DNA of 32,000 nucleotides from Acholeplasma laidlawii PG-8A (GCF_000018785.1 NC_010163.1:1230001-1262000), one strand, 5' to 3'; shown: positions 26,811-27,625, counted from the stretch's first letter. Numbers and translations: made by a program. The notes: generated by a model from the letters alone, not told the origin.

Positions 26811-27062
26811 TTAACCTAAGATTGAAGAGATGTCTTTAATTGCTTCTTCGGCATGAGGTCCTGATGCAACAATTTTAACGTTCTCACCTTTAGGTACTGC
26901 TAAACTCATTAATCCTAAAATTGATTTGAGATCAACAACTTTGTCTTTATAGTATAATTTGATATCTACAGCATATTTAGATGCTGTTTGGACAACTTTA
27001 GCAGCTAGAGTTGCATGAAGTCCAGCGGTAGATCCGATGATAATTTCTTTTTCCATAATCAT
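26811..27062 (-). CDS. HPr/Crh-family phosphocarrier-like protein (divergent active-site loop)
   Basis: GLHATLAAKVVQTASKY...VDLKSILGLMSLAV..G..V.I.ASG is collinear with B. subtilis HPr/Crh as recalled. The His15 and Ser46 equivalents are kept, but RP of GIHARPA is replaced by TL. The likely start is ATG 27056, judging by RBS spacing. Confidence 0.75.
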   Translation of the reverse strand: MIMEKEIIIGSTAGLHATLAAKVVQTASKYAVDIKLYYKDKVVDLKSILGLMSLAVPKGENVKIVASGPHAEEAIKDISSILG

Positions 27063-27076
27063 TCTCCTTTATTTTT

Positions 27077-27625
27077 TTAAAACATTGGTGGTGTGGAGAT
27101 CCATAGGATTCTTGCCACACTATTTCCTAAATTTTGTAAGTAGTGTTCTTTATTAGCCATGTAATAAAAGGTTTCGCCTTTTTTTACGATGTGTCTAGTT
27201 TTATTTAATACTAAGGTCACTTGACCTTCTAATACATATCCAAACTCTTCCCCAGGGTGTGAATCATCAATTGTTGATTGACCGCCCGGCATGATTTCAA
27301 TAATAATTGGTTCCATTTCATACTTTAAAGCATTTGGAACAATCCATGAAATTGTAGACCCTAAATCAGGGTTTTCCTTTTCGTAAAAGTCTTCCTTGGT
27401 AAATACGATTTTTGCGTCTTCGCCTTCTGGTTTAGAAAAGAACTCATGTGTTTCAACACCTAGTACTTCAAGCAATGAGAATAATGTTTGAATGGAAGGT
27501 GAAGTTAAATTGTTTTCTAATTGTGAAATATAGCCTTTAGTCAATTCTAAGCGGTTAGCAAGTTCTTCTTGAGTCAGGTTGTTACCAAGTCTGAGTGCTC
27601 TGATTTTCTTGCCGATATCTATCAT
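27077..27625 (-). CDS. XRE-family HTH plus cupin-domain transcriptional regulator
   Basis: The N-terminal HTH is LRLGNNLTQEELANRLELTKGYISQLENN. The C-terminal cupin_2-like barrel is HPGEEFGYVLEG....GETFYY. Its ATG overlaps the pgk TAA by 1 nt (TAATG). Confidence 0.8.
   Translation of the reverse strand: MIDIGKKIRALRLGNNLTQEELANRLELTKGYISQLENNLTSPSIQTLFSLLEVLGVETHEFFSKPEGEDAKIVFTKEDFYEKENPDLGSTISWIVPNALKYEMEPIIIEIMPGGQSTIDDSHPGEEFGYVLEGQVTLVLNKTRHIVKKGETFYYMANKEHYLQNLGNSVARILWISTPPMF

Follow-up and report, generated by a model that had tools for sequence, protein, structure and literature searches.

Why should the genes of two lower-glycolytic enzymes, pgk and tpiA, enclose a transcriptional regulator and HPr, a phosphocarrier protein of the phosphotransferase system (PTS), in Acholeplasma laidlawii PG-8A? 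The question is raised by positions 26,811 to 27,625 of a 32,000-nucleotide stretch of the chromosome (GCF_000018785.1, NC_010163.1:1230001-1262000), which was analyzed at its full length and is referred to here as the window; coordinates are counted from its first nucleotide. Acholeplasmas are reported to retain the regulatory half of the PTS without the transport half, and this locus shows where HPr, a central player, is encoded in these organisms. A preliminary description of the window had interpreted the arrangement as an operon carrying a divergent, Crh-like HPr paralog with a purely regulatory function, together with a cupin regulator that would replace CggR. This interpretation proved to be half right: the operon and, on the grounds of genomic context, the regulatory use of HPr were supported, while the paralog and the CggR replacement were not. 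The reading favored here, to which we assign a probability of roughly 0.55, is that of a lower-glycolysis operon conserved in Acholeplasma, which would carry the lineage's own HPr as a signal and a regulator that represses its own promoter through a dyad.

Conservation of the operon among relatives

A single pattern-based scan of species-representative genomes, made with the HPr sequence, yielded 80 loci, the titles of which were mostly Acholeplasma or Acholeplasmataceae. The genes for Pgk, the XRE-cupin regulator, HPr and TpiA were adjacent and in the same order in 79 of them. Because it recurs in so many related loci, the arrangement is real and far beyond chance, and it is not confined to one strain, as a check of synteny proposed in the preliminary description might have revealed. 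The median identity to the window proteins was 72% for Pgk (77 loci), 76% for the regulator, 79% for HPr and 61.5% for TpiA, suggesting that constraint is stronger on the two inserted genes than on the enzymes around them. In a group without CggR, a regulator that is better conserved than the surrounding enzymes could well act as a core control point of glycolysis.

The exception among the 80 loci (L071, positions 8788-11003) was a tightly packed pgk-HPr-tpiA block without the regulator, with Glu17 in HPr and lacking the promoter motif described below. A pgk-HPr-tpiA block without the regulator was also found in a distant lineage (L085), the HPr relative of which was 45% identical to that of the window and had kept Arg17 (GLHARLAA), and another HPr relative (55% identity, HAKL) lay outside the pgk-tpiA context. 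Since the distant lineage combines pgk-HPr-tpiA and Arg17 with the lack of the regulator, relocation of HPr is suggested to have preceded the loss of Arg17. The simplest history compatible with these sequences would be one in which HPr was first placed between pgk and tpiA, Pro18 was replaced by Leu, the regulator joined the block, and Arg17 was finally freed from constraint.

None of the 80 loci had gap, eno, cggR, ptsI or hprK within 10 kb of the operon. Bacillus subtilis queries for ptsI, hprK, eno and cggR gave no match in the window or in 82 loci, a result that applies to these stretches and not to the remainder of the genomes.

Operon structure and transcription

In the window, the four open reading frames (ORFs) lie head to tail on the minus strand in the conserved order, and the Pfam scores of all four proteins were far above the cut-offs (Table 1). 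Base 27625 is common to the pgk stop codon and the regulator start codon (TAATG overlap). HPr probably starts at the third ATG of its ORF (MEKE...), because the spacing to an AGGAG sequence fits this codon and nearly all homologues have 81 residues, and the tpiA start given in Table 1 is probable because an identical metagenome contig carries a gene call of 254 residues that corresponds to it. Counted from these starts, the spacers measure 20 nucleotides (nt) between regulator and HPr and 5 nt between HPr and tpiA, instead of 14 and 2 nt. The gene order and the overlap given in the preliminary description were thus retained, and its intergenic distances of 2-14 nt were revised.

The single promoter before pgk and the single terminator after tpiA that had been proposed were both located. 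The promoters of A. laidlawii have been mapped, and its regulons predicted, by Fisunov et al. 2016 (PMC5138195), and the published start-site table was placed on the window with an offset of approximately 1,230,000, which was checked on a T-box leader and on other starts of the same table. The published start 1258855, tagged ACL_1209, falls at approximately position 28855, 7 nt past the -10 element, while the published 5'-end table contains no start for ACL_1206 to ACL_1208, that is, none inside the operon. A start before pgk only, with none internal, supports one four-gene transcript, and the evidence taken together supports a single message that runs from one TG-extended sigma-70 promoter to one terminator.

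The regulator and a predicted 29-nt site for it had already been listed by the same authors as ACL_RS05980, with the regulon label "Glycolysis and sensing of nutrients level" (PMC5138195). Counting 22 genes (110 tag units) from the CcpA gene ACL_RS05870 leads to the regulator of the operon, which identifies it as ACL_RS05980, and the published 29-mer has one exact occurrence in the window, just upstream of the -35 element (28904-28932). The regulator and its glycolysis regulon are therefore not new, having been in the literature since 2016 (PMC5138195).

Identity and conserved residues of HPr

Membership of the HPr family was clear from PF00381 (85.8 bits, cut-off 23) and TIGR01003 (80.6 bits, cut-off 47.9). 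The protein scored below the cut-off of the strict HPr equivalog model NF010352 (81.2 vs. 110 bits) and, with His15 present, also below that of the Crh model NF010354 (63 vs. 123 bits). The nearest solved structures were those of HPr from Geobacillus and Bacillus (1.8e-16 to 1e-14), Crh giving a weaker match (5e-10).

As the preliminary description had pointed out, the contexts of both phosphorylation sites are kept and Arg17-Pro18 is replaced by Thr-Leu: the window protein reads GLHATLA around His15, Thr17 and Leu18, and KSILGLMSL around Ser46. This pattern is not particular to A. laidlawii. The segment G13-L/I14-H15-A16-x17-L18-A19 was invariant across the 80 loci except at position 17, which was occupied by S (42 loci), A (20), T (11), Q (4) or E (3) and by a basic residue in none, so that a phosphorylatable His15 was present in the window and in every locus. 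K45-S46-I47-L48 and L50-M51-S52-L53 were likewise invariant or nearly so in these loci, with S46 invariant. The classic His-site signature of HPr, which we take to be G-[LIVM]-H-[STA]-R-[PA] as in PROSITE, was not matched by the window protein, as it requires Arg17 and Pro or Ala at position 18. Among 120 close database homologues, Arg17 was found in just four, and among the 150 nearest representatives (50% clustering) H-R-P or H-R-A was found in 91, with a few relatives showing H-A-R-L or H-A-K-L.

Arg17 is important for PTS phosphotransfer, and the combination of an invariant His15 with a position 17 that is free to vary is in keeping with a protein that continues to be phosphorylated and is no longer obliged to feed transporters. 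If His15 has been lost in Crh and in treponemal HPr-like proteins, the strictness with which it is kept here argues for the persistence of Enzyme I or of some other use of the residue.

An extra, Crh-like regulatory paralog, existing beside a normal PTS HPr, phosphorylated on Ser46 only and acting on glycolytic enzymes or on CcpA, would account for the missing Arg17-Pro18 and the failed His-site signature, for the score below the strict equivalog cut-off, and for the finding that the HPr gene stood beside ptsI in none of the 80 loci. Such a paralog nevertheless seems unlikely, since His15 is invariant where Crh has Gln, the protein is nearer to HPr than to Crh, and its gene occupies a single fixed position in every locus. 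Moreover, no locus showed a second HPr within 10 kb of the operon, and the pattern-based scan, which a divergent copy would escape, gave one locus per genome with the exception of one duplicated block. Most likely, as judged from these sequence comparisons, HPr is the lineage's own, and probably only, ptsH, moved and slightly altered, rather than an additional paralog; this is the outcome that the preliminary description had itself named as counting against its proposal.

Two further observations were made. In the complete genome of Tenericutes bacterium MO-XQ (CP017948.1), the entire comK-pgk-regulator-HPr-tpiA block occurred twice (L022 and L026), approximately 99 kb apart, and both copies had equal percent identities to the window proteins, pointing to a segmental duplication or an assembly artefact. 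The second-best representative match to HPr was a protein of 594 residues (P0242) with two matched stretches, the better of which was C-terminal (511-586) and contained a canonical GIHARPAS.

CcpA and HPr kinase

Hoischen and colleagues reportedly found, in 1993, Enzyme I and HPr activity in A. laidlawii, transport being absent. Full-text searches of the literature turned up no statement about PTS genes in Acholeplasma. The window itself contains, 16 kb from the operon, a gene for a CcpA homologue whose best solved matches were all CcpA (approximately 1e-66). The homologue keeps D69, D296, R303 and K307, while D99 aligns to His; D296, R303 and K307 are presumably the contacts for His15 and phosphorylated Ser46 in the B. 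megaterium CcpA complex. A perfect 16-bp palindrome, TTGTAAGCACTTACAA, lies at the promoter of the CcpA gene (11749-11764) and matches the published CcpA motif of ACL_RS05870 (PMC5138195). Because this palindrome and the listed GTG start overlap, translation probably begins instead at the ATG at 11710; autoregulation of the gene is also probable.

An HPr kinase and a CcpA homologue have been described in A. laidlawii (PMC5138195), and a passage of a review cites the functional detection of HPr kinase in this species. A regulatory role of HPr thus appears well supported by its genomic context. The purely regulatory HPr of the preliminary description is consequently plausible in the sense of a mainly regulatory role, given a CcpA in the window with its contact residues and a reported kinase; that the protein is a paralog was not borne out.

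The XRE-cupin regulator and its candidate operator

The regulator combines an N-terminal HTH_3 domain and a C-terminal cupin_2 domain in one chain, according both to Pfam and to the structural model, which is the XRE-cupin architecture. In spite of this PuuR-type layout, it scored below the PuuR equivalog cut-off (80.8 vs. 211 bits). Among 35 orthologues, which were 70-98% identical, the helix-turn-helix was invariant, as were the cupin residues H123, E127, H161 and N165. The AlphaFold model (predicted local distance difference test score, pLDDT, 81) consists of a five-helix DNA-binding domain, a flexible linker and a cupin barrel, and its top fold matches were an uncharacterised HTH_3-cupin regulator from Vibrio (1y9q), HppE and small metal cupins. 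As a guide to the ligand, the fold search returned just the generic metal cupins, HppE and the uncharacterised regulator, none of them specific.

Upstream regions from 76 loci were aligned on the -10 element of the pgk promoter. The sequence ACAYTTTC was present with at least 7 of 8 matches in 71 of these loci, at a fixed distance of 43-45 nt before the -10, and its inverted partner GAAARTGT followed exactly 15 nt further on, over the -35, in 44 loci. The resulting 31-bp dyad, ACAYTTTC-N15-GAAARTGT (at least 14 of 16 matches), occurred 45 times in approximately 1.2 Mb of loci, and 41 of these occurrences were at the pgk promoter. The A. laidlawii sequence has a perfect left half, ACACTTTC. Most likely, the regulator binds the dyad and represses its own promoter; this is the most economical reading of the motif's position, and it agrees with the published prediction that ACL_RS05980 regulates its own operon (PMC5138195).

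A comK-like gene lay upstream of pgk in 62 of the 80 loci (matches covering at least half of the sequence), often with only 22-35% identity, and in many loci the conserved promoter motif and the 3' end of this gene overlap. Two other origins of the motif were considered and set aside. Coding constraint from the 3' end of the comK-like gene does not explain it, as the motif lies past the stop codon in A. laidlawii and inside the frame in other loci, being kept in both situations. A ComK box was also rejected, because the motif does not fit the pattern A4-N5-T4, in spite of the comK-like gene just upstream.

Relation to gap and to CggR

In the operons of Bacillus, gap and pgk are linked behind cggR. 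In A. laidlawii, as had been noted in the preliminary description, gap is unlinked, lying 27 kb from the operon at the opposite end of the window, and no CggR-type gene is present: a tblastn search with B. subtilis CggR found none, either in the window or up to 10 kb from the operon in the 80 loci. The window contains only the 5' end of gap. In A. laidlawii loci that include the full gene (L086, positions 153-9830; LS483439.1), what comes after it on that strand is a complete V-type ATPase cluster, with no other glycolytic genes.

It had been proposed that the XRE-cupin protein may replace CggR. As a true functional stand-in, it would be a repressor of both the gap and pgk units that senses a sugar phosphate. 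Its gene is inside a glycolytic operon, as is cggR, it is very strongly conserved, CggR was not found near the operon or in the window, and the published regulon label refers to glycolysis and nutrient sensing (PMC5138195). The distribution of the candidate operator makes this proposal quite unlikely, since nearly all occurrences of the dyad are at the pgk promoter, and neither the dyad nor its left half was found upstream of gap in the window; in addition, the protein has an XRE and cupin fold and not a SorC-type sugar-binding fold.

What gap does have is a different palindrome, GTAAACGTTTAC (172-183), which shares an AAACGTTT element with the pgk leader. This element is the motif assigned to another factor, ACL_RS01290, for which a cascade from ACL_RS01290 to ACL_RS05980, linked to glycolysis, has been published (PMC5138195). 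A related element, AACGATWACA, was present in the pgk leaders of 46 of the 76 loci with at least 7 of 10 matches, compared with approximately 14 expected. If anything couples gap and pgk in the manner of CggR, the ACL_RS01290 factor is, on the distribution of these motifs, more likely to do so than the XRE-cupin protein, and the replacement of CggR by the latter was not upheld. The occurrence of GTAAACGTTTAC before gap and of AAACGTTT in the pgk leader is in itself compatible with a common regulator of the two glycolytic units.

Proposed mechanism and significance

Taking these observations jointly, we propose that the conserved operon works as follows. HPr keeps His15 and the Ser46 region that would be recognised by HPr kinase and CcpA, and has lost Arg17 and Pro18, which would matter mainly for the onward transfer of phosphate to sugar transporters. 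It would therefore act chiefly as a signal, its Ser46-phosphorylated form being the predicted partner of the CcpA encoded nearby, and its dose would be tied to the expression of glycolytic genes. A dimer of the regulator would bind the dyad that spans the -35 of its own promoter, leading to repression, and the cupin, with its invariant His-Glu-His set, would sense a small molecule or a metal as effector. The gene order and its conservation, the promoter and terminator, the residue patterns and the promoter dyad are shown by the sequences; that the regulator is the protein bound at the dyad, the nature of its effector, which phosphorylations of HPr take place, and that this HPr is the single one are parts of the proposal that we infer.

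Four observations weigh against the proposal. In A. laidlawii itself the dyad has a degenerate right half (3 of 8 matches), and recognition of the operator may therefore differ there. The co-occurrence of motif and regulator rests on one negative case, the regulator-less locus L071. The His aligned to position 99 of CcpA replaces a residue that we take to be a contact of HPr Arg17, and the CcpA-HPr interface may thus have changed. Finally, the second conserved element in the pgk leader is probably bound by another factor.

A working pair of regulator and HPr, with phosphorylated HPr as a protein co-effector of the XRE-cupin repressor in the way that HPr-Ser-P is for CcpA, would, if real, provide the Acholeplasma family with a CcpA-independent switch setting lower glycolysis and HPr itself by energy state, but it is very unlikely. 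In its favor, the genes are neighbors that are conserved together in 79 of 80 loci, both show more conservation than the flanking enzymes, and the HPr surface near position 17 is altered across the whole clade. Against it, two lineages (L071 and L085) have HPr and no regulator, so that HPr does not depend on it, and the invariant His-Glu-His of the cupin points to a small-molecule or metal ligand.

Under the favored reading, of an operon with its own HPr as signal and an autorepressing regulator, the locus amounts to a relocated, slightly modified version of a signalling protein already known, and to no new system or principle. Its interest lies in the combination found across the sampled relatives, in which both phosphorylation sites of HPr are kept and the two residues associated with transfer to transporters are gone, so that the locus is well suited to telling the signalling and transport roles of HPr apart.

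Features of the window

The G+C content of the window is 31.6%. The operon proteins and their counterparts in A. laidlawii strain 8195 were 97-100% identical, and the left flank matched A. laidlawii chromosomes. The T-box leader used to check the offset (113 bits) lies at 5358-5534 on the plus strand, before a gene for tryptophanyl-tRNA synthetase, and the published start 1235363 agrees with its 5' end. Coordinates of the remaining features are collected in Table 1.

Table 1. Features of the operon and of related elements in the window.
Feature	Position	Strand	Evidence or remarks
pgk, phosphoglycerate kinase, 399 aa	27625-28824	minus	Pfam PGK 5.8e-157
XRE-cupin regulator, 182 aa (= ACL_RS05980 / ACL_1208)	27077-27625	minus	Pfam HTH_3 2.7e-15 and Cupin_2 1e-18
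HPr (ptsH-type phosphocarrier), 81 aa from likely start	26811-27056 (ORF to 27062 = 83 aa)	minus	Pfam PTS-HPr 2e-24
tpiA, triosephosphate isomerase	26041-26808 (likely ATG start 26805)	minus	Pfam TIM 5.3e-89
Operon promoter: -35 TTGGCA, 18-nt spacer, TG-extended -10 TATAAT	28862-28891	minus	Top-scoring site in region, 11/12 matches
Intrinsic terminator 3' of tpiA: 9-bp stem, 6 G-C pairs, then T-run	26003-26027	minus	Hairpin in sequence
Candidate operator region of the operon's own regulator	28882-28932	minus	Left half ACACTTTC 28905-28912; right-half position 28882-28889; published site 28904-28932
AAACGTTT core in pgk leader, like a cre half-site or LacI-type site	28842-28851		Published motif of ACL_RS01290
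comK-like gene, directly upstream of pgk	28915-29325	minus	Pfam ComK 1.4e-09
CcpA homologue (LacI family)	10718-11758 (likely start 11710)	minus	42% identity to B. subtilis CcpA, full length
gap (GAPDH) 5' end, first 25 codons at 81..7, runs off window	1-81	minus	Sequence

Comparison with known systems

The closest counterparts of the HPr described here are those of Bacillus and Geobacillus, which it resembles in family, length, His15 and KSILGLMSL, and also in being accompanied by a CcpA with D296, R303 and K307. It differs from them in that Arg17 has given way to a small or acidic residue that varies, in that position 18 holds an invariant Leu in place of Pro, and in that its gene lies between pgk and tpiA and not beside ptsI. 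With Crh of B. subtilis it has in common the small HPr fold, conservation around Ser46 and the proposal of a use in regulation only; Crh, however, has Gln15 and keeps Arg17-Pro18, which is the reverse of the situation in the Acholeplasma protein, and the latter scores lower against Crh than against HPr. Incomplete, regulation-only PTS sets, such as those of Brucella (for which the abstract of a study was consulted), of Treponema and, by the 1993 report, of A. laidlawii, offer a parallel at the level of the whole system: their phosphocarriers are kept for signalling and the sugar-transporting components are reported missing.

Regarding the regulator, the cggR-gapA-pgk-tpi-pgm-eno operon of Bacillus is similar in that a repressor is encoded within a glycolytic operon and probably controls its own promoter. 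CggR is a SorC/DeoR-type protein with a SorC-type sugar-binding fold, whereas the regulator of A. laidlawii is built from XRE and cupin domains, and the Bacillus operon links gap, pgm and eno, whereas these genes are not part of the Acholeplasma operon and its operator was not found at gap. PuuR and the HTH_3-cupin regulators (1y9q) share the two-domain architecture and the fold; the genomic context of PuuR is polyamine use, in contrast to glycolysis here, where the score is also below the PuuR cut-off. The most direct comparison is with the ACL_RS05980 regulon of Fisunov et al. 2016 (PMC5138195), in which gene and promoter are identical to those described here and the start is tagged to pgk. 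To the predicted site and regulon label given there at the species level, the present analysis adds the family-wide conservation of the gene order, the dyad as a candidate operator, and the pattern of change at positions 17 and 18 of HPr.

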